Position numbers and translations under genes: made by a program
Shown: positions 25,296-53,909 of the stretch, one piece after another
How the letters are laid out: each line of letters begins with the position of its first letter
How positions within the stretch are numbered: the stretch's first letter is position 1
The notes under the pieces: model-generated
Told to the model about the DNA's origin: nothing
The model's input: the letters and a program-made list of their open reading frames with translations, nothing else
Databases searched by the model: none
Source of the DNA: Octopus sinensis
Lineage: Eukaryota
NCBI RefSeq assembly: GCF_006345805.1
Contig: NW_021833788.1
Location: forward strand, 1 to 55,147
Reading direction: 5' to 3'
Length of the DNA stretch: 55,147 nucleotides

Positions 25296-28200
25296 TAAGT
25301 ATGTTTTTGATAGGTGCAGCATGGGCATTTAAGTATGATTTTGATAGGTGCAGTATGGGCATTTATGTATGCTTTTCATAGGTGCAGCATGGGCATTTAA
25401 GTATGTTTTTGATAGGTGCAGCATGGGCATTTAAGTATGTTTTTGATAGGTGCAGCATGGGCATTTAAGTATGTATTTGATAGGTGCAGCATGGGCATTT
25501 AAGTATGTTTTTGATAGGTGCAGCATGGGCATTTAAGTATGATTTTGATAGGTGCAGCATGGGCATTTAAGTATGTTTTTGATAGGTGCAGCATGGGCAT
25601 TTAAGTATGATTTTGATAGGTGCAGCATGGGCATTTAAGTATGTTTTTGATAGGTGCAGCATGGGCATTTAAGTATGATTTTGATAGGTGCAGCATGGGC
25701 ATTTAAGTATGATTTTGATAGGTGCAGCATGGGTATTTAAGTATGTTTTTGATAGGTGCAGCATGGGCATTTAAGTATGTTTTGATAGGTGCAGCATGGG
25801 CATTTAAGTATGTATTTGATAGGTGCAGCATGGGCATTTAAGTATGTTTTTGATAGGTGCAGCATGGGCATTTAAGTATGTTTTTGATAGGTGCAGCATG
25901 GGCATTTAAATATGTTTTTGATAGGTACAGCATGGGCATTTAAGTATGTATTTGATAGGTGCAGCATGGGCATTTAAGTATGTTTTTGATAGGTGCAGCA
26001 TGGGCATTTAAGTATGTATTTGATAGGTGCAGCATGGGCGTTTAAGTATGTTTTTGATAGGTGCAGCATGGGCATTTAAGTATGTTTTTGATAGGTGCAG
26101 CATGGGCATTTAAGTATGTTTTTGATAGGTGCAGCATGGGCATTTAAGTATGTTTTGATAGGTGCAGCATGGGCATTTAAGTATGATTTTGATAGGTGCA
26201 GCATGGGCATTTAAGTATGATTTTGATAGGTGCAGCATGGGCATTTAAGTATGATTTTGATAGGTGCAGCATGGGCATTTAAGTATGTTTTTGATAGGTG
26301 CAGCATGGGCATTTAAGTATGTTTTGATAGGTGCAGCATGGGCATTTAAGTATGTATTTGATAGGTGCAGCATGGGCATTTAAGTATGTTTTTGATAGGT
26401 GCAGCATGGGCATTTAAGTATGTTTTTGATAGGAGCAGCATGGGCATTTAAGTATGTTTTTGATAGGTGCAGCATGGGCATTTAAGTATGTTTTGATAGG
26501 TGCAGCATGGGCATTTAAGTATGATTTTGATAGGTGCAGCATGGGCATTTAAGTATGATTTTGACAGGTGCAGCATGGGCATTTAAGTATGATTTTGATA
26601 GGTGCAGCATGGGCATTTAAGTATGATTTTGATAGGTGCAGCATGGGCATTTAAGTATGTTTTTGATAGGTGCAGCATGGGCATTTAAGTATGTTTTGAT
26701 AGGTGCAGCATGGGCATTTAAGTATGTTTTGATAGGTGCAGCATGGGCATTTAAGTATGTTTTTGATAGGTGCAGCATGGGCATTTAAGTATGTTTTTGA
26801 TAGGTGCAGCATGGGCATTAAGTATGTTTTTGATAGGTACAGCATGGGCATTTAAGTATGTATTTGATAGGTGCAGCATGGGCATTAAGTATGTTTTTGA
26901 TAGGTGCAGCATGGGCATTTAAATATGTTTTTGATAGGTGCAGCATGGGCATTTAAGTATGTTTTTGATAGGTGCAGCATGGGCATTTAAGTATGATTTT
27001 GATAGGTGCAGCATGGGCATTTAAGTATGTTTTGATAGGTGCAGCATGGCATTTAAGTATGTATTTGATAGGTGCAGCATGGGCATTTAAGTATGATTTT
27101 GATAGGTGCAGCATGGGCATTTAAGTATGTTTTTGATAGGTGCAGCATGGGCATTTAAGTATGTTTTTGATAGGTGCAGCATGGGCATTTAAGTATGATT
27201 TTGATAGGTGCAGCATGGGCATTTAAGTATGTTTTTGATAGGTGCAGCATGGGCATTTAAGTATGATTTTGATAGGTGCAGCATGGGCATTTAAGTATGT
27301 TTTGATAGGTGCAGCATGGGCATTTAAGTATGTATTTGATAGGTGCAGCATGGGCATTAAGTATGTTTTTGATAGGTGCAGCATGGGCATTTAAGTATGT
27401 TTTTGATAGGTGCAGCATGGGCATTTAAGTATGTATTTGATAGGTGCAGCATGGGCATTTAAGTATGTTTTTGATAGGTGCAGCATGGGCATTTAAGTAT
27501 GTTTTTGATAGGTACAGCATGGGCATTTAAGTATGTATTTGATAGGTGCAGCATGGGCTTTTAAGTATGTATTTGATAGGTGCAGCATGGGCATTTAAGT
27601 ATGTATTTGATAGGTGCAGCATGGGCATTTAAGTATGTTTTTGATAGGTGCAGCATGGGCATTTAAATATGTTTTTGATAGGTGCAGCATGGGCATTTAA
27701 GTATGTTTTTGATAGGTGCAGCATGGGCATTTAAGTATGATTTTGATAGGTGCAGCATGGGCATTTAAGTATGTTTTTGATAGGTGCAGCATGGGCATTT
27801 AAGTATGTATTTGATAGGTGCAGCATGGGCATTTAAGTATGATTTTGATAGGTGCAGCATGGGCATTTAAGTATGTTTTTGATAGGTGCAGCATGGGCAT
27901 TTAAGTATGTATTTGATAGGTGCAGCATGGGCATTTAAGTATGATTTTGATAGGTGCAGCATGGGCATTTAAGTATGTATTTGATAGGTGCAGCATGGGC
28001 ATTTAAGTATGTTTTTGATAGGTGCAGATGGGCATTTAAGTATGTATTTGATAGGTGCAGCATGGGCATTTAAGTATGATTTTGATAGGTGCAGCATGGG
28101 CATTTAAGTATGTTTTTGATAGGTGCAGCATGGGCATTTAAGTATGTTTTTGATAGGTGCAGCATGGGCATTTAAGTATGTATTTGATAGGTGCAGCATG

Positions 28201-31200
28201 GGCATTTAAGTATGTTTTTGATAGGTACAGCATGGGCATTTAAGTATGTATTTGATAGGTGCAGCATGGGCTTTTAAGTATGTATTTGATAGGTGCAGCA
28301 TGGGCATTTAAGTATGTATTTGATAGGTGCAGCATGGGCATTAAGTATGTTTTTGATAGGTGCAGCATGGGCATTTAAATATGTTTTTGATAGGTGCAGC
28401 ATGGGCATTTAAGTATGTTTTTGATAGGTGCAGCATGGGCATTTAAGTATGATTTTGATATGTGCAGCATGGGCATTTAAGTATGTTTTTGATAGGTGCA
28501 GCATGGGCATTTAAGTATGTATTTGATAGGTGCAGCATGGGCATTTAAGTATGATTTTGATAGGTGCAGCATGGGCATTTAAGTATGTATTTGATAGGTG
28601 CAGCATGGGCATTTAAGTATGTTTTTGATAGGTGCAGCATGGGCATTTAAGTATGTTTTTGATAGGTGCAGCATGGGCATTTAAGTATGTATTTGATAGG
28701 TGCAGCATGGGCATTTAAGTATGTTTTTGATAGGTGCAGCATGGGCATTTAAGTATGTATTTGATAGGTGCAGCATGGGCGTTTAAGTATGTTTTTGATA
28801 GGTGCAGCATGGGCATTTAAGTATGTTTTGATAGGTACAGCATGGGCATTTAAGTATGATTTTGATAGGTGCAGCATGGGCATTTAAGTATGATTTTGAT
28901 AGGTGCAGCATGGGCATTTAAGTATGATTTTGATAGGTGCAGCATGGGCATTTAAGTATGATTTTGATAGGTGCAGCATGGGCATTTAAGTATGTTTTTG
29001 ATAGGTGCAGCATGGGCATTTAAGTATGTTTTTGATAGGTGCAGCATGGGCATTTAAGTATGTATTTGATAGGTGCAGCATGGGCATTTAAGTATGTTTT
29101 TGATAGGTGCAGCATGGGCATTTAAATATGTTTTTGATAGGTACAGCATGGGCATTTAAGTATGTATTTGATAGGTGCAGCATGGGCATTTAAGTATGTT
29201 TTTGATAGGTGCAGCATGGGCATTTAAATATGTTTTTGATAGGTGCAGCATGGGCATTTAAGTATGTTTTTGATAGGTGCAGCATGGGCATTTAAGTATG
29301 ATTTTGATAGGTGCAGCATGGGCATTTAAGTATGTTTTTGATAGGTGCAGCATGGGCATTTAAGTATGTATTTGATAGGTGCAGCATGGGCATTTAAGTA
29401 TGATTTTGATAGGTGCAGCATGGGCATTTAAGTATGTTTTTGATAGGTGCAGCATGGGCATTTAAGTATGTATTTGATAGGTGCAGCATGGGCATTTAAG
29501 TATGTTTTTGATAGGTGCAGCATGGGCATTTAAGTATGTATTTGATAGGTGCAGCATGGGCATTTAAGTATGTTTTTGATAGGTGCAGCATGGGCATTTA
29601 AGTATGTATTTGATAGGTGCAGCATGGGCATTTAAGTATGTTTTTGATAGGTGCAGCATGGGCATTTAAGTATGATTTTGATAGGTGCAGTATGGGCATT
29701 TATGTATGCTTTTCATAGGTGCAGCATGGGCATTTAAGTATGTTTTTGATAGGTGCAGCATGGGCATTTAAGTATGTTTTTGATAGGTGCAGCATGGGCA
29801 TTTAAGTATGTATTTGATAGGTGCAGCATGGGCATTTAAGTATGTTTTTGATAGGTGCAGCATGGGCATTTAAGTATGATTTTGATAGGTGCAGCATGGG
29901 CATTTAAGTATGATTTTGATAGGTGCAGCATGGGCATTTAAGTATGTATTTGATAGGTGCAGCATGGGCATTTAAGTATGTTTTTGATAGGTGCAGCATG
30001 GGCATTTAAGTATGTTTTTGATAGGTGCAGCATGGGCATTTAAGTATGATTTTGATAGGTGCAGCATGGGCATTTAAGTATGTTTTTGATAGGTGCAGCA
30101 TGGGCATTTAAGTATGTATTTGATAGGTGCAGCATGGGCATTTAAGTATGTTTTTGATAGGTGCAGCATGGGCATTTAAGTATGATTTTGATAGGTGCAG
30201 CATGGGCATTTAAGTATGTTTTTGATAGGTGCAGCATGGGCATTTAAGTATGATTTTGATAGGTGCAGCATGGGCATTTAAGTATGATTTTGATAGGTGC
30301 AGCATGGGCATTTAAGTATGTATTTGATAGGTGCAGCATGGGCATTTAAGTATGTTTTTGATAGGTGCAGCATGGGCATTTAAGTATGATTTTGATAGGT
30401 GCAGCATGGGCATTTAAGTATGTTTTTGATAGGTGCAGCATGGGCATTTAAGTATGATTTTGATAGGTGCAGCATGGGCATTTAAGTATGATTTTGATAG
30501 GTGCAGCATGGGCATTTAAGTATGATTTTGATAGGTGCAGCATGGGCATTTAAGTATGTTTTTGATAGGTGCAGCATGGGCATTTAAGTATGTTTTGATA
30601 GGTGCAGCATGGGCATTTAAGTATGTATTTGATAGGTGCAGCATGGGCATTTAAGTATGATTTTGATAGGTGCAGCATGGGCATTTAAGTATGTTTTTGA
30701 TAGGTGCAGCATGGGCATTTAAATATGTTTTTGATAGGTACAGCATGGGCATTTAAGTATGTATTTGATAGGTGCAGCATGGGCTTTTAAGTATGTTTTT
30801 GATAGGTGCAGCATGGGCATTTAAGTATGTATTTGATAGGTGCAGCATGGGCATTTAAGTATGTTTTTCATAGGTGCAGCATGGGCATTTAAGTATGTTT
30901 TTGATAGGTGCAGCATGGGCATTTAAATATGTTTTTGATAGGTACAGCATGGGCATTTAAGTATGTATTTGATAGGTGCAGCATGGGCTTTTAAGTATGT
31001 TTTTGATAGGTGCAGCATGGGCATTTAAATATGTTTTTGATAGGTGCAGCATGGGCATTTAAGTATGTTTTTGATAGGTGCAGCATGGGCATTTAAGTAT
31101 GATTTTGATAGGTGCAGCATGGGCATTTAAGTATGTTTTTGATAGGTGCAGCATGGGCATTTAAGTATGTATTTGATAGGTGCAGCATGGGCGTTTAAGT

Positions 31201-31720
31201 ATGTTTTTGATAGGTGCAGCATGGGCATTTAAGTATGTATTTGATAGGTGCAGCAGGGCATTTAAGTATGATTTTGATAGGTGCAGCATGGCATTTAAGT
31301 ATGTTTTTGATAGGTGCAGCATGGGCATTTAAGTATGTATTTGATAGGTGCAGCATGGGCATTTAAGTATGTTTTTGATAGGTGCAGCATGGGCATTTAA
31401 GTATGTTTTTGATAGGTGCAGCATGGGCATTTAAGTATGTTTTTGATAGGTGCAGCATGGGCATTTAAGTATGATTTTGATAGGTGCAGCATGGGCATTT
31501 AAGTATGTTTTTGATAGGTGCAGCACAGGCATTTAAGTATGATGTGGATAGGAGAAGCATGTGCATTTAATTATGTTTTTGACAGCAGCAACTTGGGCAT
31601 CTAAGTATGTTTTTGACAGGATCGGCATGAGCATTTAAGTATGTTTTTAACATGAGCAGCATGTACATTTAAGTACCTTCTTTACAGGTGCAGCATAGGC
31701 ATTTAAGTATGCTCTTGACA
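25296..31720. repeat. 34-bp minisatellite array, about 183 homogeneous copies plus a degenerate right edge
   Basis: Unit GGCATTTAAGTATGTTTTTGATAGGTGCAGCATG with period 34; homogeneous to about 31525, decaying to about 31800; no spacers. Confidence 0.98.
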
Positions 31721-31988
31721 GCTGCATAGATTTCAAAATTTATATTTTACAGGTATAGTGTGGCTGTCAAGATATCTTTTAGTGTAGTGCTTCAATCATA
31801 GGTGCAGTCTAGCAATCAACTGGGCTGCAAAGGGCAAGAGCAAAGGCTCTTCCCTTTATAGCAAACCAATAATGAAGAAGAAACATGTGCAGTGTAACAA
31901 GCAAGGTATGATTTTTTAAAAGTGCAATGTGGTGCAAATCAAGTACATTGTTTGGCTATTAAGAAAGACACATACAAGAAATACTTAC

Positions 31989-32148: not shown

Positions 32149-32214
32149 CTGCAAACAGGGTGTTATAGAAATGTAGATGTGTAGTATGTATATGTTTGTA
32201 TATAGATATGTATG

Positions 32215-32640
32215 TTTGGAAATTGTAGTTGTGATACCTGTGCCGGTGGCATGTAAAATGCACCATCTGTGCATGGCTGATGCCAGCACCCAGCGCTGCC
32301 TTGACTGGCTTCCATGCCGGTGGCACGTAAAAGGCACCAACTGATTGTGGCCGTTGCCAGCCTATCCTAGCACGTAAAAAGCACCATCCGTACGTGGTTG
32401 ATGCCAGCGTCGCCTTGACTGGCTTCCGTGCCGGTGGCACATAAAAAGCACCAGCCTTGCCTGGCACATAAAAAGCACTCACTACACTCACGGAGTGGTT
32501 GGCGTAAGGGCATCCAGCTGTAGAAACACTGCCAGATTAGACTATAGCCTGGTGCAGCCTCCTGGCTTCCCAGACCCCGGTCGAACCGTCCAACCCATGC
32601 TAGCATGGAAAACGGACATTAAACAATGATGATGATGATG
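32215..32640 (+). mobile_element. RTE 3' UTR/tail fragment
   Basis: Family sequence with a (GAT)n tail. Confidence 0.8.
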
Positions 32641-32827
32641 TATACATATTTGCCATGTAAAAAGCACTCAATATATTAAGTGGTTGTATTAGGAAGGGCA
32701 TCCAGCTGAAGAAACCATGCCAAAGCAGACACAGAATCTGACAAAGCCTTAAGCTTCACCTGTTCTTGTTGGGCCGTTCAACCCATACCAGCATGAAAAA
32801 GGGGATGTTGCATTGAACAGATGATGT

Positions 32828-32983
32828 AAATCAGTTTATTTATTTACATATGCGTTTACAAGTATGGATGACTATCGTTTATTTCAGTTTATGCATGAGT
32901 GTGTGTGTGTGTGTGTGTATAAACTGAAATAAATGACAGACATCCATACTTGTAAATGCATATATAAATAAATAAACTGATTT
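32828..32983. repeat. Fold-back inverted repeat, ~65-bp arms with a (GT)n loop
   Basis: The arms are reverse complements with about 5 mismatches. Confidence 0.9.
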
Positions 32984-33199
32984 GAGTTGATAATCTCATA
33001 CTAGCACACATATGCACGCATAAACTTAAGCAGTAAGCATCCATACACCTACACACATGAATATACACTCACACATAAACTAAAACAGACCAAAGACATG
33101 CATGTTTTGTAAAATCTTTTATTTTATTTTTATTATTAATTTATTATTATTTCATTTTTATTATTCATTATTAATCTTTATTTTTATTCTTATATACTT

Positions 33200-33790
33200 C
33201 ATTATTATTATTATTATTATTATTATTGAGTGAGAGAGAAGTGCATGCCATCAAAGTGACACTGGGGTACAAATATACGAAGCCCAGTATACCCATCATG
33301 ACTACCCGTCTGATAAGGGTACACCAGGCGCACATGCATCACAACCATATGTGCACGACATGGTGATCTCATAACAAGATAAACAGCGCATGACCTTGCG
33401 GGTAGGGCCCAGTTAGAATTTTCTTCTGGTTGGGTAACCCATCCCACTCAAAAGGTCCCTGATTAAGGGTTGTTTAAGGATGTTGAATGAAACACCCATG
33501 TTTCCAGAGGTGAATCATTCAAATCCCAAAGAATCCCTCTCAACACATGGCTATGATGCTCCCCCACTACTTCTGCTCATGATCAGAGATGCATATATCA
33601 TCAGCCACTAAGGGACATGCTCAACTGGTTACGGTCAAACAACTGACAAGCAAATCTGTGGTATTGAGCAGAATATTTGCTGTAGCCCATCTTTTATACC
33701 AAGACAAAACAATGTACATGATAACACTTCCAGTCAGTTAAGATCAGAAGTCATGAGAGCCACTGCCTGATACTGCATCAGGGCATTTAG
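33200..33790 (-). mobile_element. Retroposon (SINE or LINE 3' end) with (AAT)n tail
   Basis: A (TTA)n run on + abuts a compositionally distinct, more GC-rich 560-bp block; family not established. Confidence 0.5.
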
Positions 33791-34231
33791 TATATTGAAA
33801 TAAATATTAATGCATGCATGCACACACACCTACATAATAAACACGCTTTCATCAACTTAGTCTGTAGGAATATCTCAAAAGATCAACATGTAAACTTCAT
33901 AATGTCCTTTGCCCTGAAAATATTTCACTCAAAATCTTCAAAATGCAAACTTATATTATTATCATTATTAAATGTTTTGCAGTCTGCGTTGGGTGTGAAT
34001 TGAAATAATTGTAGGCAATGTTAATTAATTAATAAATTAATTTATATCTATTAAATCTCTCCATTTCTTTCTTTTAAATATTTGATATTTTTATAATATA
34101 TTCATTGAAGAAATATCTCTTCAAAATATAAAAGAATAAACCAGTGTAACTTGGATAAAACTATTCCAATAAGAAGTTTAAATATCCTTAATGTGACTTA
34201 TATGTATGTGTGTGTGTATATATATATATAT

Positions 34232-34625
34232 TATGGCTGCCCCCTCGTTATCGAGTATGGCCATTGCATGAAGCTTAACTGTTATTGGTGCTGTGATCGA
34301 ATGTGACTTTTTAGCGCAGCTAAAGATCTACAATGTCTGGACAAGAATTGGCAGCTAAAACCTTTACTGGCAATAGCCATCTGTAGTTGTAACTGGGCTT
34401 CATGTACCTATGCATGTTGTTTAAGTCCTCCTGCCAAATTACACTCTCTTCCACATGCCTGACAGATATGATTAGTATGGTGTGTAACAGCACCACCAGT
34501 GGCCAGGTTGTCACTCATATGTCTTGCTTTATGACTACAAAGATGACTTTTGAGTCCAGCTTCACTGAGGCAGGGTCTTGCACAGACACTGCATGTCAGA
34601 ATCAAAGGAAGACCCTTCCCTTCTG
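34232..34625 (-). mobile_element. LINE 3' end (RTE-type) with C-terminal C2H2-like zinc fingers
   Basis: CSVCARPCLSEAGLKSHLCSH and HICQACGRECNLAGGLKQH. Confidence 0.65.
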
Positions 34626-36150
34626 GAACTTTAACAGCGATGCCCTTCCTGATGCCCTGGTTGGTTGGAGTATTATTTGCGCCATGTACAGAGTGTTGAT
34701 GAGGTTTAGGAGGGACCTCACCTGTCCTCGTTCGCATCGTGTCATTCCTGGGAGAGAAAGGCCCTCGGGCCATCTGACATTGGGCAGATTGAAGTCTCCC
34801 ATAAGAAGTACACTTATGTGTTGTTCTAATGTGACTAGAACTTCTATTTTTATAAGGCAGTCTTCAAACTTGCCTACATGGCTTGGGGCATCTGGAGGGC
34901 GATATGTAGCTCATATAACTACACCAAGTTGCCTTATATGTACAATTAGTGTGTCACACACCGAGTTTGAGTATGACAAAAGGACCTGGGGTGTGAGGTC
35001 CTCGCGGATGTACATAGCAACTCCTCCATGACTCCTTTCTTTTCTGTCGGTCCGTAGTACAACATACTTTGGTATGTGTATTTCTGCATCTGCTATGTCC
35101 AGTTTCAGGTGTGTTTCCGTAAGTGCTATGCATAAGGCTTGATTGCATGCAACAAGGTCTCTCAAGAAAGGGATTTTTGTCTTGTTACTGAGTGTTAGCA
35201 GTCCTCTGATGTTCAGTAAGAGCATCGAGGTGATGTGTGTGCTGTTGCCACCTTGGGTCTATTTGCTGTGGCGGTCTTGTGCATTGTGGATAGTCCCATC
35301 TGCGAGTTTGAGTTTGATGGAGCCAGGTTAGCTGCTGTACGATCTTTTGTGCCATGCACAAAAAGATTCTTGTTCAGCAGATGCCCTTTGAATAACATGT
35401 TGGTGGTTTGTAGCACGCACTACATCTGCGTACCTCTGTTTTGGGGTAGGTGGTGCATAGTCCATTCCTTTTCCTTTTGGTAGTTGGTTTCTGCCCTGTT
35501 TCATGTTTATGAGGCAGGGTCTTTGGTGTGCAAAACGGCAGCCTGCACCTTCCTCTCCATGCCAGCAGACACCTTTCTGGTAGAATTTATACATTCGTGT
35601 GCGCTGTCTCTTTCTATCCTTTTTGGTATATGGATAGTCAGGTTTGCTTCTATCCTTGGCTGTTTCATCTTTTGGTTTTGTTTGAATTTTAGTTTTTCCT
35701 TCTTTGGCTGTTTCATCTTTTGCTTTTCTTTTAGTTTTTCCTCCTTTTACTTCTTTTTTGGCTCTTTCATCTCCATGGTTTTGGCTTTTGGTGCTGGTAG
35801 GGGCACTTGCACTTGGGTTTACTTCCCGGGCAGGTTTCTCACTTGAATCTTCTTTGTTGTCCTGGGTGTCTACCAAGTGCAGGTGACATCTTTCATCAGC
35901 ACCCGTGCCTCCATCCTTGCCATCTTTACTGTGTTCATTGTCAAAGATGGCATCAAGCGTACCGATGTGGGATCTTATGAGTGCATAGGAGCATATAAAC
36001 TCCTGCTTCTTTCTCTCTATCTGTGCTAACGTCCTTGTGTATCAACTGCTCTTCAGCGCAGCTGTAATTATGTTGTTCAGATTATCTCCATCGGCGCATC
36101 CCCAGGCTCTCTGGAACAACGTCAATTCCATGCTCCTCCAGGTTCTGGAC
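34625..36150 (-). mobile_element. CR1-like LINE 5' part: ORF1 remnant and APE endonuclease
   Basis: LLLNIRGL, ALTETHL, GGVAMYIRE, YRPP and MGDFNLP; upstream Lys-rich ORF 35328-35876 with a decayed CCCH-like motif (KFYQKGVCWHG...CRFAH). Confidence 0.85.
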
Positions 36151-36189
36151 ATTTTTGGATATTTTATTTATTTATCTATCTAATTATAT

Positions 36190-37085
36190 TTAAAATTTAA
36201 TAGTGAGATAGAGGGTAGAGAAGAAATAGAGAAAGAAAGTGTCTATGTATTTAGGGAGATTGAGAGCTGAGAGAAGATAAGAGAGTAAGAGAGAGTGAAA
36301 GTTCGCGTCTATATATTTAGAAAGATTGAGAGGCAGAGAGAGGAAAGATGGTGTGACAGAGAGAAGTGAAGAGACAGAGAAAGAGGCGTGAGGGAGAGAA
36401 GTGAAGAGACAGAGAGAGAAAGAAATGAAAGAGAGGTAGTCATGCAACAAATAAATATATATCTATATGCAGCTACAAAAGTTCTCTTCTAAGCTAATTA
36501 TAAATATCTATCTATCCGCAACTACGAGAGAAGTGAAGGGGAGAAGTGAAGAGACAGAGAGAGAAAGAAATGAAAGAGAGGAGGTCATGCAACAAATAAA
36601 TATATATCTATCTGCAGCTACAAAAGTTCTCTTCTAAGCTAAATATAAATATTTATCTATCCGCAACTACGAGAGAAGTGAAGGGGAGAAGTGAAGAGAC
36701 AGAGAGAGCAAGAAATATATATATACCTATCTGCAGCTACGAAAGTTCTACGAGAGTTTTCTTCTGAACTAATTATGACTATATTTCTAATGTTTGCGTC
36801 TATATATTTAGGAAGATTGAGAGGCTGAGTAAAAATAAAGAAAAATATATACATATAAATAAAGCAACAAATAAATATACACCTATCTAAAGTTGAATAA
36901 TTATAAAGAGATATAGTGAGAAATTGACAAAAACGAAGCTGAAACAGAAATTGAAAGATTATTAACAGAATGTAAATTATAAATATATACCTATCCGTAG
37001 ATACGAAAGTTTTCTTCTAAACTAATTGCGACTATACTTCTAATGTTCACGTCTATATATTTAGGAAGATTGAGGGGCTGAGTTT
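36190..37085. repeat. AG-rich complex tandem repeat
   Basis: Recurrent modules ctatctgcagctacaaaagttctcttctaagcta, gagaagtgaagagacagaga and gcgtctatatatttaggaagattgagaggctgag. Confidence 0.7.
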
Positions 37086-37102
37086 AATAGTATATCTATT
37101 CA

Positions 37103-37735
37103 ACAAAATATTATAATAATCCAGGTTTCTCGGAGCACTAGGCCACTTGGTGTTGAATAGATATACTATTAAATTAGTATCTAATTCTCTCACCCTTATT
37201 AATTAATTATAATTATGCTGCATTTATTCTAAATGCTGTATTTGTTTTCCGTGAAAGTTTGGCGCGCTGTTAGTTGGGGGCATTTGAATTATAACGTCGG
37301 ATGTAATCAATTGAACCACACGCGTATTTATCGTTATGGTAAAATCTGGCGTGTGATTGAGTGGATTTCATCCAGATAGTTTTGGCTGACGAGCTACAAG
37401 TGGATTTTTTGTAAGTAAAATTACATTTAATTCATTAATAGCGAAACAATTGTCCCAAAATAATCTGTATTTTTGTTATTTTTTATTTGCCCTGTCCGTG
37501 TGAGCTAGCAATCGTACTGACTTTCATGGGAAACATGTATTTTTGTGGTCGAAACCTTTTGGATTAACTGGTGCTAGAGTGAGCCATATAGTGACCACTC
37601 TCTTATATTTATTTTGTAAAAATATTATAATATATTATAAAATATTATAATAATCCAGGTTTCTCGGAGCACTAGGCCACTTGGTGTTGAATAGATATAC
37701 TATTAAATTAGTATCTAATTCTCTCACCCTTATTA
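37103..37735. mobile_element. Element with ~97-bp identical direct repeats (37103-37200 and 37640-37735)
   Basis: aaaatattataataatccaggtttctcggagcactaggccac...ctcacccttatt occurs twice; related to the termini at 49401 and 51740. Confidence 0.7.
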
Positions 37736-37828
37736 TTAATTATATATGTATATATATAATATATATGTATATATATATAATTATATATATATTATATATA
37801 TATATATATAGTATATATAATATATATG

Positions 37829-37874
<46 letters not shown>

Positions 37875-38160
37875 GTAATTATTATATGTATATGTATATA
37901 TATAATATATATGTATCTATTATATGTATATATTATATAATATAAGTATATATATATGTATATATATATAATGTATATAATTAATATGTATATATATATG
38001 TATTATATATATATATATTATATATGTATATATATGATATGTATATATATATGTATATATATGTATATATATATGTAATATATATATATAAGGTATATAT
38101 ATATGTATAATATATATATATGTATATATATATGTATATATATATGTATTCTATATAATG

Positions 38161-38191
<31 letters not shown>

Positions 38192-38240
38192 TATATATTA
38201 TATATATAATTGTATATATATATGTATATATATATATTAT

Positions 38241-38281
<41 letters not shown>

Positions 38282-38284
38282 GTA

Positions 38285-38318
<34 letters not shown>

Positions 38319-38347
38319 TATATATGTTATAATATATATATATATAT

Positions 38348-38383
<36 letters not shown>

Positions 38384-38464
38384 ATGTATATATATTGTAT
38401 ATATATATATGTATATATATATATGTATATATGTATCTATATATATTATATATGTATATATATG

Positions 38465-38496
<32 letters not shown>

Positions 38497-38587
38497 TGTA
38501 TATAATAATATATGTATATTAATATATATATATATATAATATATATGTATATATATATATATGTATATATATATAGATAATATATAG

Positions 38588-38638
<51 letters not shown>

Positions 38639-38653
38639 TACATTATATATATA
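37735..38653. repeat. Long imperfect (TA)n microsatellite
   Basis: Seen directly. Confidence 0.95.
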
Positions 38654-39175
38654 CAGTGTGAAGCGGCTGACCCCTCCCTTGTTCGAAGGTTATAATGGAT
38701 ACAGATCGTGTATCAATAGCTATCTTGATGGCGGTGGCCTCATAGAGCTGACTAGCGGCAGCGATTATTCTTATATCTATAAGAATGCCATATTAATATG
38801 GCGATAACAATTAATTTCCAGTAAACGCTGCCGTTAATCTCTTTTATAGAGACTTAGTAATTTTAATATTTCTATTATTGAAAACAAGTTGATGTATTCC
38901 ACTGAAACTAGGTAAATAGAACCTTCGAACAGAGACGTCAGTGGCGACACCTGCGGGTCTGACTGCGCTACATTGACAAGGGGCAATACCCCGAAACGCG
39001 TCTGTAGCTGTCGGACTGGCAGTGCGAAGCGGCTGACCTCCCTTGTTCGAAGGTTATAATGGATACAGATCGCGTATCAATAGCTATCTTGATGGCGGTG
39101 GCCTCATGGAGCTGACCAGCGGCATCTCTTATTCTTATATCTATAAGAATGCCATATTAATGGCGATAACAATTA

Positions 39176-39178
<3 letters not shown>
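38654..39178 (+). mobile_element. Hammerhead-bearing ~366-nt repeat, 1.45 tandem units (retrozyme-like or Penelope-like terminal repeat)
   Basis: 38654-38817 recurs at 39020-39178; contains a hammerhead and extensive internal complementarity; embedded in (TA)n; second copy at 53540-53828. Confidence 0.8.
38967..39008 (+). ncRNA. Minimal type I hammerhead ribozyme, U3-A8 core variant
   Basis: GCTACA|TTGACAA|GGGG-CAATA-CCCC|GAAAC-GC-GTC|TGTAGC gives stem I, core, stem II, palindromic ACGCGT stem III and a GUC cleavage triplet (cut after 39002). Confidence 0.85.
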
Positions 39179-39226
<48 letters not shown>

Positions 39227-39709
39227 GTATTATATATATATATATATACACATACATATGCATCATATGCACACACATTATATATATATATATATATATA
39301 TACATATATATACACACACACACACACATATACATACATGTATATATATATACATATACACACACATATTTAAACGTTTGTTTAAATAGTGTTTGGTCAC
39401 TTGAAACGAACTTTTGCAGGCATGGTGGGGGGAAATTTTAGTAGTAGTAAACTGGCAGACTTTGGCTGAAGAGAAACAGGCAACTATTTGGTGCTAATTT
39501 CAAAGCCAGTTCCAAGTTGTCCAGTATTGGTTATGCTGAACTAGCAGAGGCAAGATGTTTTTAATATTCACTGGAATTTTTACCTACCATGCCTGTATTA
39601 GATTTGTGACTACTCTGTGGTACAGAAGTATTTCTGACTTCTATTTTTAGTGATGTAGGTGCTCATATGGTGCCTTCATGTATATATATATATATAAGTA
39701 CATATCTTA

Positions 39710-39944
39710 CATCTGAACGTGGCCGATGCCAGCGCCGCCTTGACTGGCTTCTGTGCTGGTGGCATGTAAAAAGCAACCACTACACTCACGGAGTGGTTGG
39801 TGTTGGAAGGGCATCCAGCTGTAGAGACACTGCCAGATCAGGCTGGAGCCTGGTGCAGCCTCCTGGCTTCCCAGACCCTGGTCGAACCATCCAAACCATG
39901 CTAGCATGGAAAACGGATGTTAAACGATGATGATGATGATGATG
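39710..39944 (+). mobile_element. RTE/SINE tail fragment
   Basis: Family sequence with a (GAT)n tail. Confidence 0.8.
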
Positions 39945-40906
39945 TACTTGGTCTACATTTTTTCAGGAAGGGGTTATCTGAAGTGTAGTCTCTTTTAAAC
40001 TGAGCTTCATAACTAAGGAAGAAATTAACACAGTTTTCCCATCATTACAGGGACTTTATTTCTTCTGACTCACAGCTGTCTTTCCATAATTTTAAAACAC
40101 TTTCCAAAAGTTGTTCATCAGCATATTTAATGAGTTCGGTGTGCATTTCTTGGTTGTTTTATATTTTTGTTCATTATTCAATGCTCTGAGTTTAAGTAAC
40201 TCAATCTCTAGTTTCATTTTTTTAGCGCTAATTTCTCCCAAAGTTTTCTTTGCTGTTCATGTTCTTCTGGGATTGGTTTGATTTGTAGTTTGTGTGGCAG
40301 AATTAATGGTGTTAAGTTAATCCATTTTTCATATATTTCTGCCTTATTATTATTTTTATCATGTTCCAAAGCGAAAATTTTCTAGTGTTAAGATTTTTGG
40401 ACCAAATATGGATAATGCGGGTAGTTTTCTGCTAGCCCCTTGATAATATTTTCACATTTGATTCCCAATTCTAATAATTTTTATATTCTACGTATAATTA
40501 TTTCTTTGTATAATAGTACTCACTTGCTTAGTACATATTATTTTCATTATTTTATCATAGTTATAATCTCTCCTAGAAAAACATCATGGTAGTCCAACAA
40601 CAGAGGGAGATTTGCAAAAGGAAAGAATGATTATGAATAGAATATAAAAAAAGGAGCAGAAAGGAAAAGTATTTTAACAAATAACAAGTACAGAGAAAAG
40701 AAGATTTTTTTGAGAGTCAATAAAATAGAATACGAAGGACTATGTTGAAAGGCAGAGATTGGAATAGAAGGATTACAAAATGATAAGTTATATAATCACC
40801 TTTTAAAAGAAACAGATGTAAAAGAAGAAAGGATAGTAAAATTTATAAAAGGGAATGTTGTATATATTATCATTATCATTTAATGTCCATTTTCCATGCT
40901 GGCAAG

Positions 40907-41322
40907 TAGTAGAGTAGTAGAGACAGCATTCACCCGGGGTGGGTTGAGCTGGCTTCATTCATTCTCAGTGCTGCATCTCTCACAAACGCTGACTAGACTT
41001 GGCAATTTGAGGCTAATGACAACGTGATCTCCAACCACTCCTTATTCCAGCAGCGAACGCTGTAGATATAGGGGTCTAGGTTGAGTTCCAGATTAGCCTT
41101 GACTGTCATCAGCCAGGTTTTTCATTGACCACCACATCGCTTTCGCCAACCCTGAAGGGGAGCTTGGGCAATTGCTTCGTAGATGAATTCTCCTGGGTGA
41201 TGACGGAGGGCATGACCCAGCCAACGCAGACGTCTCGTTAGGATGATTTGTCGGAGGGAGGTGATTCTGCACTGGTGTCGCACCGAATTGTTGGAGACAA
41301 GTGATGCCATCGGACACGAAGG
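40907..41322 (-). mobile_element. RTE-type LINE 3' fragment with an 11-bp TSD (ATGCTGGCAAG), inserted in an older tail repeat
   Basis: TSD at 40896-40906 and 41323-41333; encodes RRLRWLGHALR; homologous to 22892-23360. Confidence 0.85.
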
Positions 41323-41656
41323 ATGCTGGCAAGGGTTGGACAGTTTGACAGGAACTAACAAGTCAGATTACTGCACCAAGCTCTGATATCTGCTTTGACA
41401 AGGTTCCTACGACTGAATACCCTTCCTAATCCCAACCATTTTACTGCTCAAATGAAAGTGTGTATACTTGGTGACCACACTTGTGCCAGTGACACACAAA
41501 AGCACTCAATACACTCTGTAAGGGGTTGGCATTACGAAGGGCATCCAGCTGTAAAAGTCATGCCAAAGGCAATGCTTGATAGCATCTTCTGACCTGTTGG
41601 ATCTTGTAAAATGTTCAACCCATACCAGTTTGCTATATGGGCACTAAATGATGATA

Positions 41657-42361
41657 TCTCTATATATATCAACAGCAAAATGTGTGTGTCCTTTATACAA
41701 ATCCGCAATTTTTCAGTTAGAGGGCTCAAACTTTCTATGGTCATTCAAAACCGTCCAAGGGTGGTTGTGAAGATCTTTTCATTTCCCACTTATCCCCGAA
41801 AGCCATTTGAAAAGATCGATACACTTTCAGCCAACAAAAGTCTTTAATACAAGGGACGTAACTCACTTAATCCAGGAGTCTAATCAGAAGATATTAAACC
41901 ATAGCAAGGGAAATAACTCTTTAAAACTCTGCATTTCTCTCCCTTTGTTATGTATCACAACTCAATACGGTACCAGACCAATTTATCCAATTTAGGACCA
42001 GAACTGTCCCAGATTTCTGGATTTTCCAGTTTCTCAGAGAATTTCTAAACGTTTGCTTAAAATCTCTATATCTATAAATGGCAAAATGTCTGTTTTTTGA
42101 TTGGACGGAGATAATTTTACACCTGACAGTTGGATGCACTTGCGCATTTGCAGACAGTCTGTATGACTGCACATTTTTGTGTTTTGCGAAGACGAGTTAT
42201 CATGTGTTTTGGCTTTCAAACGTGCAAGCTTTTTTGATTTGAGAAATGCAGGGAATAATTAACGAGTTAGACCAAGTGAATGACAAGAGAACAGGATTTT
42301 CATGGTAGACCAAATATGCTCGAGTAGCACTGGACTCAACAGCGCTGGGTCATAGTGCTAG
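41657..42361 (+). mobile_element. Non-autonomous Helitron-like element
   Basis: A|TC 5' end, subterminal imperfect hairpin, and CTAG|T 3' end at 42358-42362. Confidence 0.65.
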
Positions 42362-42599
42362 TATATATGTATTTTAGACATATGCCCTGTGCCAGCATCA
42401 TGTAAAAAAAAAAGCAATTTGCAAAATAAAAGGCACCCATTCCAGTGCTACATAAAAAGCTGGCACCACATAAAAAGCACCCAGCACACTCTGTAAAACT
42501 GTTGGCATTAGGAAGGGCATCCAACCATGAAATCATGCCAAAGCAGACAATGGAGCTTGGTGCCACTGTCAAACCATGCCAGTGTGATAAATGGACATT

Positions 42600-44105
42600 C
42601 ATCATCATCATCATTTAGCGTCCGCTTTCCATGCTAGCATGGGTTGGACGGGTCAACTGGGGTCTGTGAAGCTGGAAGGCTTCGTCAGGCCCAGTCAGAT
42701 CTGGCAGTGTTTCTACGGCTGGATGCCCTTCCTAACGCCAACCACTCCGCGAGTGTAGTGGGTGGTTTTTACGTGCCACTTGCACAGGTGCCAGACAGAG
42801 CTGGCGAACGGCCACGAACGGATGGTGCTTTTACGTGTCACCGGCACGGGGCCAGGCGATGCTGGCAACGGACACGAACGGATGGTGCTTTTACGTGTCA
42901 CTGGCACGGGGCCAGGCGAGGCTGGATGGTGCTTTTACGTGCCACCGACATGGGGGCCAGACAGAGCTGGCAAACGGCCACGAGCGAATGGTGCTTTTAC
43001 GTATCACCGACACGGGTGCCAGACGAGGCTGACAGCGGACACGAAATGGATGGGTCACTTAACCCCTGCTTTCTGATATATGATTTGATTTTGATTGTTC
43101 TCACTGGTCTTGCCGGGTCTTCTCACGCACAGCATACTTCCATAGGTCTCGGTCTCTGGTCATTTCCTTGGTGAGACCTAGAGTTCGAAGGTCGTGCTTC
43201 ACCACCTCGACCCAGGAAAACCTGGGTCTACCTCTTCCACAGGTCCCATCAACTGCCAGGGTGTGGCACTTTTTCACACACCTATCTTCATCCATTCTCG
43301 CCACATGACCATACCAGCGCAATCGTCTCTCTTGCACACAACATCTGATGCCTCTTAGGTCCAACTTTTCTCTCAAGGTACTTACACTCTGTCGACTATG
43401 AACACTGACATTACACATCCAACGGAGCATACTAGCTTCATTTCTCGCGAGCTTACGCATGTCCTTGCAGTCAGCACGGCCCATGTTTCACTGCCATGTA
43501 GCATGGCTGTTCGTACACATGCGTCATACAGTCTGCCTTTTACTCTGAGCGAGAGGCCTTTAGTCACCAACAGAGGTAAGAGCTCCCTAAACTTTGCCCA
43601 GGCTATTCTTACTCTAGCCATTACACCTTTCAGCACACCCACCCCCACTACTGACTTGGTCACCAAGATAACGGAAGCTATCAACTACTTCTAGTTTTTC
43701 CCCCTGGAAAGTGACGGAAGTTGTTTTCTGCAGATTTTCAGAGGTTAATGCTCCCGAGCATCTGCCACATACAAAAACCATCTTCCTAGTTAGCCTTCCT
43801 ATGACATTGCTGCACCTCTTATGTGTCCATAGCTTACACTTGGTGCATCTTAGAATTTCTACCTACACCTTTTCTACAGATCGAGCAGGGCCATCTACCT
43901 GAAGGCGTTTGTGATTTGTCTACCTTCCTACTTATTACGACTTTGGTTTTAGCTAGGTTGACTCTAAGGCCCTTCGATTCTAAACCATGCTTCCACACCT
44001 GAAACTTCTTCTCCAGTTCTGATAATGACTCAGCAATTAGAGCAAGGTCATCAGCATAGAGGAGCTCCCAGGGGCATCCTGTCTTGAATTCCTCCATTAT
44101 TGCCT
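42600..44105 (-). mobile_element. RTE-like LINE, 5'-truncated
   Basis: WELLYADDLALIAES, RRLRWYGHVARM, 3' UTR and (GAT)n tail. Confidence 0.92.
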
Positions 44106-44461
44106 AACAGACAGTAAGTTTCTGTACAGTCTCTCCCCACCAAATTCCACAAACAAGGTTTGAGAAATCTAATAATATGGTTGAAAACAACTGCCAAAAA
44201 GTTCATACACACACACACACACACATTTTGCTGTTGATATATATATATAGAGAGATATCATCATTTAGTGCCCATATACCATACTGGTATGGATTGAACA
44301 TTTTACAAGACCCAACAGGTCAGAAGATGCTATCAAGCATTGTCTTTGGCATGACTTTTACAGCTGGATGCCCTTCCTAATGCCAAAATGCCTTAACCTT
44401 ACAGCCATGTCGTGTGTTCTGGTGAAAGTAGTACGTATTTCCATTCATAAACAGAATGCTT

Positions 44462-44730
44462 CATTATCATCATCATCATCGTTTAACGTCTGTTTTCCAT
44501 GCTAGCATAGATTGGACGTTTCAACCGGGGTCTTGGAAGCCAGGAGGCAGCATCAGGCTCCAGTCTGATCTGGCAGTGTTTCTACAGCTGGATGCCCTTC
44601 CTAACTCCAAACACTCCATGAGTGTAGTGGGTGCTTTTTACGTGCCAGGCAAGGCTGGCAACGTCCGCAATCGATTGGTGCTTTTTACGTGCCACCAACA
44701 CAGGGATCACAACTACAATTTCCATTTATT
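44462..44730 (-). mobile_element. RTE 3' UTR/tail fragment
   Basis: Family sequence. Confidence 0.8.
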
Positions 44731-45784
44731 TTAAGCTTCAGTCTTAAAATAACTTACAGACTAATGATTTGTGAACAGATTTTACAGAGAACAAAAAAAA
44801 TTAATAAAAATATTGTCTCAAAAGTGAAGACATAAATACATCATCTCATAACTGTCATCATTTTTATGTCAAATTTTCTATACTTGCACGGGTTAGATGG
44901 AAGTATGTTGGGGAAAAGTTTTCTACAACCAGATGCACTTCCAGTTGCCAACCTCAGTTTGTTTTCAAGTGAGGTAATAATCTTTCAGTGAATCACACAA
45001 CAAACAACCTGGGATGTTTATGGAGAGAACTGAAAATTAGATGACACCATCAGAAATTCCATTGGTTGTGTAGGGTTTAGACAACCGCACGTAAGGAGTT
45101 CGCAATAAATGTCTCCTTAAGAACACTGCACGGTCGTTCCCTAGCATAATATGAAGCCAAATACATAATATATAAAATATAGTTTAATAATTACAGAAAT
45201 ACACTCATTAATAAATTGAAGAACGTGAAGAAAGAGAAAATAATTTCTACATTATTTTATTATATACATATAGCAATTTTAATATTTATATACATTTTGA
45301 AGAAAAGTAATTTTTGTCGTAGAGAATTACGACTATATATTTTAGCTAACTAATTCCTCATTCTAGCTATATTAAATTTCAACAATTCAAACAAGTCTTG
45401 TTGGATATTTCATGGACACGGCATAAAAAATAACCAATGTCTCAAAGGAGTGAGTGTCATGGAGTTTAGTTACATCCCACAAACACTGAAGTTTTTCCCA
45501 AAATCCAGGGTTTTTATAACTGCTCAACTTGACTTTAAAGTATCAAAATCACATAAAAATATTCTTTAACTAACTTTTAGAATTCCTATATGAGCAGTTA
45601 TATTAACCAATGGAAAATCGACAATCATATTTCTTTGGCAATACGACATTACGTCATATTGCCAGCTACCACAACTTGGCGTTACTATTTGAAAATGGCT
45701 ACACACTACAGTTGCAACCAATGAAAGAACACACATGAAGATGATGGATATACAAATCCTCACACATATATATCTATACACACA

Positions 45785-45927
45785 CAATAGGCTTCTTTCA
45801 GTTTTTGTTTATGAAATCTACTCACAAGGCTTTGGTCAACTTGGGGCTATAGTAGAAGACACTTGCCCAAAGTGCCTGCAGTGGGACTGAACCCGGAACC
45901 ATGTGGTGGAGAGGCAAACTTCTTAAC
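45785..45927 (-). mobile_element. tRNA-derived SINE head fragment
   Basis: Minus strand reads CACATGGTTCCGGGTTCAGTCCCACTGC; homologous to 13686-13838. Confidence 0.7.
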
Positions 45928-46250
45928 TACATATCCATGCTAGAGCCTCTGTGTTTCTTATTAATCATACAAAAAGGGATCATTTCTAACTGAAGAATTT
46001 GCTTAGCAGTTATATAAATATGTGATGGGTACAGGCATAGCTTTGTGATTCCTTCTCTACCATATGGTCTCAGATTCAGTCTCACTGGCATGGCACAATG
46101 GGCAGGTGTCTTGTAATAGCCTGGAGCCAGCAAAACCTTGTGAGAAAGAGAAACTGCAAAACCCAATAAATATATATTTATGTGTGTGCATAGAAAAGTG
46201 GTTGTTAAATGACAATGACGACAATGTGTTTGAAACTTCCAATAACTTAC

Positions 46251-47194: not shown

Positions 47195-47538
47195 CATTGT
47201 TTAATGTCCGCTTTACATGCTAGCATGAGTTGGACGATTTTGACTGAGGGCTGGCGAACCAGATGGCTGCACCAGGCTTCAATCTTGATCTGGCAGAGTT
47301 TCTACAGCTGGATGCCCTTCCTAACGCCAACCACTCCGAGAGTGTAGTGGGTGCTTTTTACGTACCACCGGCACGGAGCTAGTCAGGCGGTACTGGCAAA
47401 AACCTCACTCGAATCTTTTACACATGCCACCGGCACAGGTGCCAGTAAGGCGATGCTGGTAACGATCATGCTTGAATGGTGTCTTTTACGTGCCACCAGC
47501 ACCGAGGCCAGATAGCCGCTCTGGCAACGATCACGATC
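47195..47538 (-). mobile_element. RTE 3' UTR/tail fragment
   Basis: Same subfamily as the copies at 19459 and 23757. Confidence 0.8.
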
Positions 47539-48790
47539 ACTCCACCAATTTTCCTGCATCATCCGTAGCTTCCTCTGCACTGTTGCTTTTACTGCCTTGA
47601 AACATATAGCCACTGTCCTGTTCGCTGACATGTCAACATTTTGCAAGATGTTAAATGCCTTTCGCTTCTCTTCTAAGACTAATTTCTTCAGCATTATCGT
47701 CAAACCAATCTCGATCCTTTTTTTCAGCAAAGCCAAGAATGTTACTACAAGCCTCATATACTCTTTCTCTGAAATGACTTCCAACCTCCATCACAGGACA
47801 AATTATTTATCTCACTCACAAACTCATTATGTATTGACAGTATCTTAAGTTTATTGACATCAATCCATTTAGGTAACTTGTCATTTGCTCTAACCTTAGG
47901 CTTGACAACATTGGCACTCAAAAGCCTATGGTCAGTCCAGCACTCTGCACCATGCATCACTCGTACAATAGCAAAGTCCCTATTAACTCATTTCCTGGTG
48001 AGGATGTAATCTATAAGATGCCATTTCTTAGAACCAGGGTGCATCCATGTCGTTTTATACTTATTCTTTAGTTGAAACATTGTATTCATGACACACAAAT
48101 CCATCTCTATGCACATTTGTAACAGTAGTAAACCATTACTGTTGGAACTCCCAACCCCATGCTTTCCTAAGACACTCCAAGTCTCCCAAACTGCACCAAC
48201 ACGAGCATTAAAATCACCCAAAATGACAACTTTGTCATCATGGGGGATACTGCATAAAATTTCTGTAAGTGATAGATGGTAGGCAAGTTTATCATCCTCT
48301 GATGAATTCATAGATGGAGCATATGCACTTATGAGTGTTGTATAGTGATCTTTTCTTAATGGAAGTCTTAAAGACATCAAACCATCAGAATGACCACATG
48401 GTAGTTCCTCAAGTCTGGTGTAGCATAGTAAATTCCATTGTCTCGACCACAGTCGAACAATGATGATGAATTCCTCAAGTTTTAAAACCAGAGTTGTTTT
48501 GATAGCAAATCCCACTCCTCATTCTCTCTAACGCTCCAAAGTAAATGATACCCAGCAAATTTCTCTATGAAATTCCCCTTTCCATGAATTCTTGCTTCGG
48601 CTAACACTACAACATCCATATCATATCGCTGTAACTCTTTTGCAATAAGTGCAGATCTTCTTTCTGGACAAGATTTCAGACAATCACTGTCTAATAGCGT
48701 TCGAACATTCCAACATCCTATATTCATAGGTTTGCATCTTAACCTGAGTTTACTCACAGTTGTAGGATGATGACCAGATCCAGGCTATGG
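47538..48790 (-). mobile_element. RTE-like LINE 5' part, decayed APE endonuclease
   Basis: IGCWNVRTL, LISAYAP, ILGDFNARVG and TTWMHPGSKKWHLIDYILTR. Confidence 0.9.
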
Positions 48791-53828: not shown

Positions 53829-53909
53829 TATGTATAATTATATATTATATATATGTATATATATATGTATATATATATGTATATATATATATATATATTA
53901 TATATGTAT

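Follow-up and report, generated by a model that had tools for sequence, protein, structure and literature searches.

Background

Animal non-LTR retrozymes are short non-coding units that lie head to tail, carry one type I hammerhead ribozyme each, have a G+C content below 50% and no long terminal repeats, and are predicted to fold into a stable circle in which the ribozyme is free. Molluscs are among their hosts, and in the mussel Mytilus galloprovincialis the repeats measure 350–390 bp (Cervera and de la Pena 2020, PMC7229834). RNA of the mussel and axolotl retrozymes was circularised by RtcB in vitro (PMC7229834). The satellite-type hammerhead repeats of newt and axolotl (HHR_Amex1/2, units of 330–350 nt, PMC7229834) have a weak palindromic helix III, and their cleavage is expected to depend on a dimer. 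A preprint on Xenopus (Li, Clavereau and Pollet 2026, bioRxiv 10.64898/2026.07.22.740005) describes dispersed monomeric or partial copies, links retrozymes to Penelope-like elements (PLEs) by co-occurrence and by the phylogeny of pseudo-LTRs (pLTRs) in vertebrates, and reports cleavage of one of nine retrozyme dimers in vitro. As far as the accessible text of these sources goes, the papers that define animal retrozymes (Li et al. 2026, PMC7229834, PMC7761336) leave open both the mobilising retrotransposon and the use of the circle as a template.

The pLTRs of EN+ PLEs contain type I hammerheads with a palindromic helix III, among which U3-A8 variants are known (PMC4209133), and PLE insertions are characterised by 5′ truncation, partial tandems, an inverted 5′ copy, a one-ended tail of 30–40 bp, target duplications of variable length, and a bias for (TA)n (Craig et al. 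2021, PMC8557442). PLEs, some of them recently active, are reported from Octopus vulgaris (PMC13282606).

Here, a repeat from a 55-kb window (the whole stretch of Octopus sinensis DNA that was analysed, 55,147 nt) is described. The sequence at 38654–39179 represents a truncated member of a 366-nt non-coding repeat family that is present in high copy number and carries a type I hammerhead motif. We consider it likely that this repeat is an octopus non-LTR retrozyme and that the copy was pasted into a TA microsatellite by a Penelope-like reverse transcriptase (RT) and endonuclease. The repeat has the features of the animal retrozymes listed above, including the molluscan host, and its unit falls within the size range of those of the mussel. 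It is unlike them in its U3-A8 core, its cephalopod host, and its recurring 3′ ends and TA-microsatellite targeting, neither of which was found in the accessible text of PMC7229834; the circle is a predicted one here. Dispersed monomeric or partial copies and the link to PLEs are shared with the elements of Li et al. 2026, a study without a mollusc according to its main text, whereas the link rests on insertion anatomy in the octopus. The newt and axolotl repeats, as described, resemble the octopus repeat in their weak palindromic helix III and expected dimer-dependent cleavage, but their long tandem arrays were not seen in the octopus data. With the pLTRs of EN+ PLEs, the repeat has in common the ribozyme type, the palindromic helix III and the U3-A8 pair, as well as 5′ truncation, partial tandems and the (TA)n bias, and possibly an inverted 5′ piece and a one-ended tail; it differs from them by a 77-nt spacer without an open reading frame (ORF), a canonical instead of a minimal hammerhead, and a putative tail of about 60 instead of 30–40 nt. 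The kind of element is known, and the variant core and the insertion anatomy distinguish the octopus family. No cephalopod retrozyme was found among the papers that the literature searches listed, although one may yet stand in the supplements of PMC7229834 and the bioRxiv preprints or in the O. vulgaris repeat library, and “octopus” was not found in the accessible text of PMC7761336.

Methods

Contigs of public sequencing runs were compared with the unit at 80% likeness, and those of four (X15, X17, X1 and X9) of the 24 runs listed, carrying three organism labels, were used. None of the 24 is recorded as an RNA run. X15 and X17 are large and probably genomic, with X15 possibly being the window's own sample, and X1 and X9 were guessed to be RNA. 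Details on the runs rest on those items that were listed, namely 40 of the 63 letter differences, 24 of the 208 loose ends and 32 of the 3217 pieces. For domain searches, 67 of the 437 stop-to-stop frames with a length of at least 50 aa (mostly at least 90 aa, non-repetitive) were scanned against Pfam. Comparisons with published systems refer to the accessible parts of the cited sources.

Results and discussion

The repeat unit and its two copies in the window

A preceding sequence-only reading had proposed a repeat with a period of 366 nt and about 1.45 units. Recomputation yielded 1.44 head-to-tail units of 366 nt for copy 1 (38654–39179, plus strand), in which 38654–38817 and 39020–39179 are identical at 153 of 164 positions (93%). 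The full unit (38654–39019, plus strand, 42.6% G+C) is followed by a partial second one (39020–39179, plus strand), and the overlapping parts differ by seven substitutions and four gap positions (two two-base indels). By eye, most of these differences occur in only one of the two parts, the other having the letter of the family, and hence they do not discriminate between a circular and a multimeric template. At its 5′ end, copy 1 lacks the 17 nt that would reach the preceding cleavage site, which is itself missing, and its 3′ end corresponds to unit position 38817.

Copy 2 (53545–53827, plus strand, 283 nt) lies about 15 kb from copy 1 and aligns by BLAST with 84–85% identity to unit positions 38956–39019 and then, across the junction, to 38654–38878. 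This agrees with the earlier observation that it starts and ends at other points of the unit and reads straight through the point where copy 1 begins. At its 5′ junction, a 9-nt direct duplication (53536–53544 and 53548–53556) was noticed, possibly due to RT slippage. Both copies are embedded in (TA)n, as had been pointed out, with annotated TA repeats at 37741–38653 and 39181–39358 around copy 1 and at 53456–53529 and 53825–53910 around copy 2.

The longest ATG frame in the unit encodes 24 aa, so the unit is non-coding, and the earlier judgement that it holds no credible ORF stands. Neither a poly(A) tail nor terminal repeats other than the unit itself were found at the copies. A third copy was not found in the window with nhmmer, a weak BLAST match at 45260–45308 was dropped as AT-rich sequence, and the 366-nt repeat is absent from the TRF listing of the window. 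A G+C content below 50% and a head-to-tail unit of 150–450 bp with a type I hammerhead, by which non-LTR retrozymes are recognised, were both found.

A type I hammerhead with a U3-A8 core

When both strands of the 55 kb were scanned for hammerheads under relaxed settings, two matches were obtained, one per copy and both on the plus strand. The type I hammerhead of copy 1 (38956–39017, identified by motif scan and fold) comprises a helix I of 6 bp (38967–38972/39003–39008) plus an internal loop and an outer stem, the core UUGACAA (38973–38979), i.e., U3-A8 instead of C3-G8, a helix II of 4 bp (GGGG/CCCC) with the loop CAAUA, GAAA at 38993–38996, and the palindrome ACGCGU as helix III, with a predicted cut after GUC (39002|39003). 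In copy 2 (hammerhead at 53545–53606), the core reads UUGAAAA and the cut is predicted after 53591. The conserved core, GAAA, GUC, a Watson–Crick pair between positions 3 and 8, and three helices with helix I open are all present, and self-cleavage is predicted. The C3-G8 contact of the hammerhead is a Watson–Crick pair (PMC3884650), and its covariation to U3-A8 is natural and active in vitro (PMC3088659), being a natural variant present in schistosome PLE hammerheads (PMC4209133). Canonical metazoan hammerheads have a helix I of 6 bp, a helix II of 4 bp and a short palindromic helix III (PMC4209133); the octopus ribozyme is of this form and differs from the minimal form of PLEs, in which helix II is long.

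At gathering score, Rfam gave no hammerhead match in the window, and none of the 12 matches at E ≤ 10 in 38600–39250 was a hammerhead, most of them stemming from the TA flanks. Rfam is probably blind to this ribozyme because of its U3-A8 core. No hammerhead was matched on the minus strand of the 55 kb, and an Avsunviroidae-like circular RNA was rejected as a candidate on the basis of zero minus-strand hammerheads and zero Rfam matches at gathering score.

The earlier statement of one hammerhead per unit is correct for the unit, whereas each locus holds only a single complete one, and hence neither copy could release a monomer. By the criterion of Li et al. 2026 (two consecutive complete hammerheads), neither copy 1 nor copy 2, the only loci considered in this respect, is an active locus. 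In a two-copy cofold, a dimeric helix III was formed (−31.9 vs. 2 × −13.3 kcal/mol); according to this model, cleavage through the palindromic helix III is predicted to need a dimer.

The predicted circle and possible signs of selection on its structure

Folded as a circle, the unit reached −133.5 kcal/mol (z −9.7) in a branched structure, and 0 of 100 dinucleotide shuffles were as good; the minus strand folded as a circle with z −6.1. The extensive self-complementarity reported earlier was fully recovered, with every helix named there being part of the circular minimum free energy (MFE) fold. On the plus strand, a long-range helix of 12 bp (38680–38691/38920–38931) connects the spacer with the remainder of the unit, and a branch (38753–38836) consists of an 11-bp stem (38753–38763/38826–38836, containing CGGCAGCG/CGCTGCCG), two hairpins (38767–38786 and 38787–38802), and an unpaired AU-rich loop (38803–38825) that includes one of the recurring 3′ ends (see below). 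The stems that close the hammerhead (38956–38963/39010–39017 and 38967–38972/39003–39008) belong to the circular MFE fold as well, and the model predicts helices I and II to be still formed in the circle, with pair probabilities of 0.89–1.0. The ribozyme helices likewise stay formed in the predicted circles of animal retrozymes (PMC7229834).

Between copies 1 and 2, 11 of the 164 confidently paired positions differ, compared with 24 of the 117 others (Fisher p 0.0008); in the ribozyme core region, the two copies differ at 2 of the 42 positions. This conservation of paired sites is merely suggestive of selection on the structure, because the structure was derived from copy 1 and the loops are AU-rich. 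Copy 2 covers 61 of the predicted pairs, of which 51 are the same in both copies, three are kept by a one-sided change, one is compensatory (A-U to G-C at 38962/39011) and six are broken, two of these at the copy's end. When folded alone, i.e., without the spacer, copy 2 was no better than shuffles (z −1.35, 16/200).

Runs X15 and X17 also contain a second subfamily (33 and 39 contigs, respectively, with loose ends before 39026), which departs from the first in its helix I arm and its helix III loop. Its 39 contigs in X17 keep the helix III palindrome by a double change to ACTAGT (by eye), and the X15 consensus has a non-palindromic helix III loop (33 contigs, agreement 0.8).

Recurring 3′ ends and insertion anatomy

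Two 3′ ends recur among the copies. The major one lies at 38878, where copy 2 ends, where 31 contigs of X15 turn into AT repeats, and where one X9 contig leaves the unit (among the 24 of 208 loose ends listed). The minor one lies at 38817/8, with copy 1 ending at 38817 and one X9 contig leaving the unit at 38818. An AU-rich stretch (38852–38878, plus strand) ends at the major site; counted from 38817/8, this corresponds to a “tail” of about 60 nt. Across 38878, the summed depth falls about threefold in X15 (823,714 to 270,746) and about twofold in X17, within a region (38852–38887) that is 80–90% AT and may draw unrelated contigs at 80% likeness. In the modelled circle, 38817/8 is located in the predicted single-stranded AU-rich loop, and 38878 is located 3 nt past another one, in a weak AU hairpin. 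The 5′ ends of the copies vary, and recurring 3′ ends combined with variable 5′ ends are what target-primed reverse transcription produces when it starts at preferred sites. The copies had been described as circularly permuted. Random permutation is ruled out by the 3′ ends recurring at 38878 and 38817/8.

The cleavage site is read across not only by copies 1 and 2 but also by records 3–5 of X1, record 29 of X9, and records 14–15 of X15. As a cut linear monomer could not template such copies, the RNA that was reverse transcribed would have been either a ligated circle or an uncut multimer, between which the chances are about even. The proposal of a circular or multimeric template gains from this read-through, which excludes the cut linear monomer, although its permutation argument is weaker than had been stated.

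Two of the loose ends in X9, one behind 38818 and the other behind 38878, start with 9-mers that are mutually reverse-complementary (2 of the 24 of 208 ends listed, compared by eye). They probably represent one insertion with a target duplication of 9–12 bp, in which one piece is inverted and ends at 38818 and the other is direct and ends at 38878, although the two contigs may differ in locus; in such an insertion, both DNA ends would have been primed on the plus-strand, ribozyme-bearing RNA. That no target site duplication is visible is hence true of copies 1 and 2, whereas one is probable at this other insertion. An inverted piece, a one-ended tail and a bias for microsatellites fit PLE machinery. 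Among these and the remaining PLE traits, 5′ truncation, partial tandems and the microsatellite target were seen in the octopus family directly, and the inverted piece, the one-ended tail and the variable target duplication derive from the single X9 end pair, by eye. This insertion anatomy lends some support to the Penelope-type machinery that had been suggested as the likely mobiliser.

The same ends would be expected if the repeats were pLTR debris of an autonomous PLE, i.e., mostly 5′-truncated pLTR fragments (hammerhead to 38878) made from the linear RNA of a coding PLE, while copy 1 would be a tandem that was internally deleted by chance and has no independent activity. Copy 2 matches this description exactly, fixed 3′ and variable 5′ ends suit it, the summed depth in X15 is 620,134 at the ribozyme and drops to 48,849 immediately 5′ of it, record 23 of X17 and record 32 of X9 extend beyond the 5′ side of the ribozyme by about 300 letters that do not align, and U3-A8 was first noted in PLE hammerheads (PMC4209133). 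However, the unit continues past 38878: copy 1 and contigs of all four runs (records 3, 13, 17–19 and 29) run through the 77-nt spacer (38879–38955, plus strand, from the major 3′ end back to the hammerhead), which closes the unit and forms the 12-bp pairing with 38680–38691 on the unit's other side. Furthermore, the ribozyme is of the canonical 6-bp/4-bp type and not the long-helix-II minimal form typical of PLE pLTRs, and the unit has no ORF. We regard debris of this kind as an unlikely source of the repeats, while noting that the pLTR and the retrozyme explanation overlap, since Li et al. 2026 derive retrozymes from pLTRs. The repeat as an autonomous PLE in itself was rejected, as the 77-nt spacer lacks an ORF and 0 GIY-YIG domains were matched in the 67 frames. 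No full dimer of the unit, and no contig spanning the whole stretch, was found among the listed contigs of the four runs.

A high-copy family in public sequencing runs

Contigs matching the unit numbered 2560 in X15, 570 in X17, 42 in X1 and 18 in X9, with those of X15 and X17 being polymorphic. The summed X15 depth at the ribozyme was 620,134, compared to about 35–60 for long single-locus-like contigs; this ratio suggests copies in the order of 10^4, with the summed depth not being a true copy number. The repeat hence is a high-copy family under at least three organism labels.

One variant, spanning 38873–39159, dominates the runs X1 and X9, which fall under two organism labels. Its letter at 38936 accounts for a depth of 123 of 159 in X1 and 37 of 43 in X9 and is rare in the large runs (36.5 of 35,312 in X15 and 0 of 2,229 in X17). 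Copy 2 belongs to this variant, as it shares 20 of the 22 listed letters of the deepest X1 contigs at 38956–39125 (two further positions, 39064 with a minor change and 39128 with an ambiguous one, are not counted). The letters of the variant touch eight of the predicted pairs, five of which break and three of which hold. One would expect plain carry-over of DNA to resemble the large runs in its variants, so a rare transcribed master of this variant is plausible, given the guessed run types.

In one X9 contig (depth 6.2, loose end behind 38976), seven of the eight adenosines in 38978–38996, including those of the core GAAA, read G (by eye), and the same contig contains two CpG-type C-to-T changes as well. 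At a per-site rate of 10%, seven of eight A-to-G changes would arise by chance with a probability of 7e-7, calculated for a single contig that was picked after the fact. The contig would fit A-to-I hyper-editing of the plus-strand RNA. Cephalopods edit RNA heavily. No paper on ADAR editing of retrozymes was found in the literature.

Dominance of one variant in two guessed-RNA runs, combined with its rarity in the large ones, would also be in line with endogenised copies of a viroid-like circular RNA that replicates from RNA to RNA; the strong fold on both strands would suit such an RNA, and RNA-to-RNA replication was raised as a possibility for the mussel circles (PMC7229834). The minus strand, however, carries no hammerhead, searches with exact patterns returned zero matches in viral contigs and zero in metagenome contigs, and the dominant variant occurs in X15 at a single-locus-like depth of 36.5, so a genomic master suffices. 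A viroid-like origin is therefore considered extremely improbable.

The CCDC124 locus and the content of the window

Four coding exons of CCDC124 were placed by tblastn on the minus strand (46408–46251, 32151–31984, 18419–18294 and 15693–15496), the last of which best matches proteins of Octopus sinensis (98%), O. bimaculoides (92%) and Argonauta (88%) and the Pfam family Ccdc124. As minus-strand exons flank copy 1, it lies antisense in the first coding intron (32152–46250, between exons 46408–46251 and 32151–31984), as had been predicted, and would leave the CCDC124 pre-mRNA uncut. Copy 2 is located upstream of the gene's start codon, at a distance of about 7 kb. Both loci look like passive insertions, intronic and upstream, respectively, with no sign of a role in CCDC124.

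In the first coding exon (46408–46251), a frame change near 46370 is needed to match the proteins of O. bimaculoides and Argonauta; the best-matching CCDC124 protein (133 aa) lacks this exon, and the frame change is either an assembly error or a real lesion. Other repeats in the gene include a 34-bp minisatellite at 25296–31726 (about 190 copies, 95% match, in a CCDC124 intron) with degenerate relatives at 18584–18926, and a 145-bp unit at 36388–36716 (2.3 copies, 95% match) in the same intron as copy 1. Short arrays of a 60–67 bp unit were found inside a common dispersed repeat at 7239–7455, 14222–14395, 15907–16147 and 42767–43031.

Among the 67 window frames, no GIY-YIG domain was matched by Pfam, a search that shorter or decayed PLE pieces could escape, and five RVT_1 and two Exo_endo_phos (AP-type endonuclease) matches were obtained, which point to LINE debris. 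Broken fragments of LINE-type RT and AP-endonuclease lie on the minus strand at 53988–55091, 47386–48784, 43104–44103, 34411–35258, 11115–12765 and 823–2031, one of them ending about 160 nt from the 3′ end of copy 2 on the opposite strand. A short frame at 50854–51111 is without a Pfam match, and we presume that it resembles the C-terminus of a mariner transposase. Whether a copy adjoins an RT/GIY-YIG ORF had been put forward as a check; LINE-type RT fragments are near, but the 67 frames contain no GIY-YIG.

The LINE debris bears on another candidate explanation, in which a satellite or SINE-like repeat carries the ribozyme and spreads through LINE machinery or DNA-level duplication, with neither a PLE nor a circle. 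LINEs are left open as mobilisers in PMC7229834, and RT and endonuclease matches of this type are present in the window. The copies, however, have no poly(A) tail and no tRNA head, their A-B-A layout is not obtainable by simple local duplication of a linear monomer, and the inverted piece with a one-ended tail and the TA targeting are traits of PLEs. Such an origin is hence rated as highly unlikely. A tRNA-derived SINE was rejected separately, with zero tRNA genes predicted by ARAGORN in the window, from which a decayed head would escape.

A model for the mobilisation of the repeat

The call of a non-LTR retrozyme, already made from the letters of the sequence, is supported by the head-to-tail 366-nt unit, the type I hammerhead, the lack of coding capacity, the strong circular fold and the many copies. 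By its testable features the element belongs to the animal non-LTR retrozymes, and with its predicted circle it works like them. In our model, a multimeric source locus would be transcribed on the hammerhead (plus) strand; two neighbouring hammerheads would pair via the palindromic helix III, cut after GUC and release a 366-nt monomer, as predicted from the fold and by analogy to mussel and axolotl. A host ligase would, by the same analogy, circularise the monomer. The endonuclease, presumably that of a PLE, would nick TA-rich DNA, and the RT would prime in the single-stranded AU-rich loops, mostly at 38878 or else at 38817/8, and copy over the intact cleavage site. By stopping at variable points, it would generate 5′-truncated copies smaller or larger than one unit, sometimes with an inverted second piece. 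Copies 1 and 2 are likely passive end products of this process, retaining one complete ribozyme each.

A more far-reaching version can be formulated, in which the octopus family of about 10^4 copies draws its RNA mostly from one rare master variant shared across species, a Penelope-type RT uses the circle directly as its template, priming at two fixed loops that are single-stranded and sometimes at both DNA ends (twin priming), and ADAR hyper-edits the catalytic adenosines as a brake. As a whole, we consider this combination rather improbable.

Conclusions

Hammerheads with a U3-A8 core probably escape Rfam, so censuses of retrozymes may undercount. With its thousands of insertions, the octopus family provides a countable test of the mobilising enzyme, for which the recurring 3′ ends, the reading through the cleavage site and the inverted insertions of PLE type can be scored. 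If the far-reaching version were true, it would yield direct anatomical evidence on which machinery moves animal retrozymes, and it would tie cephalopod RNA editing to ribozyme control.
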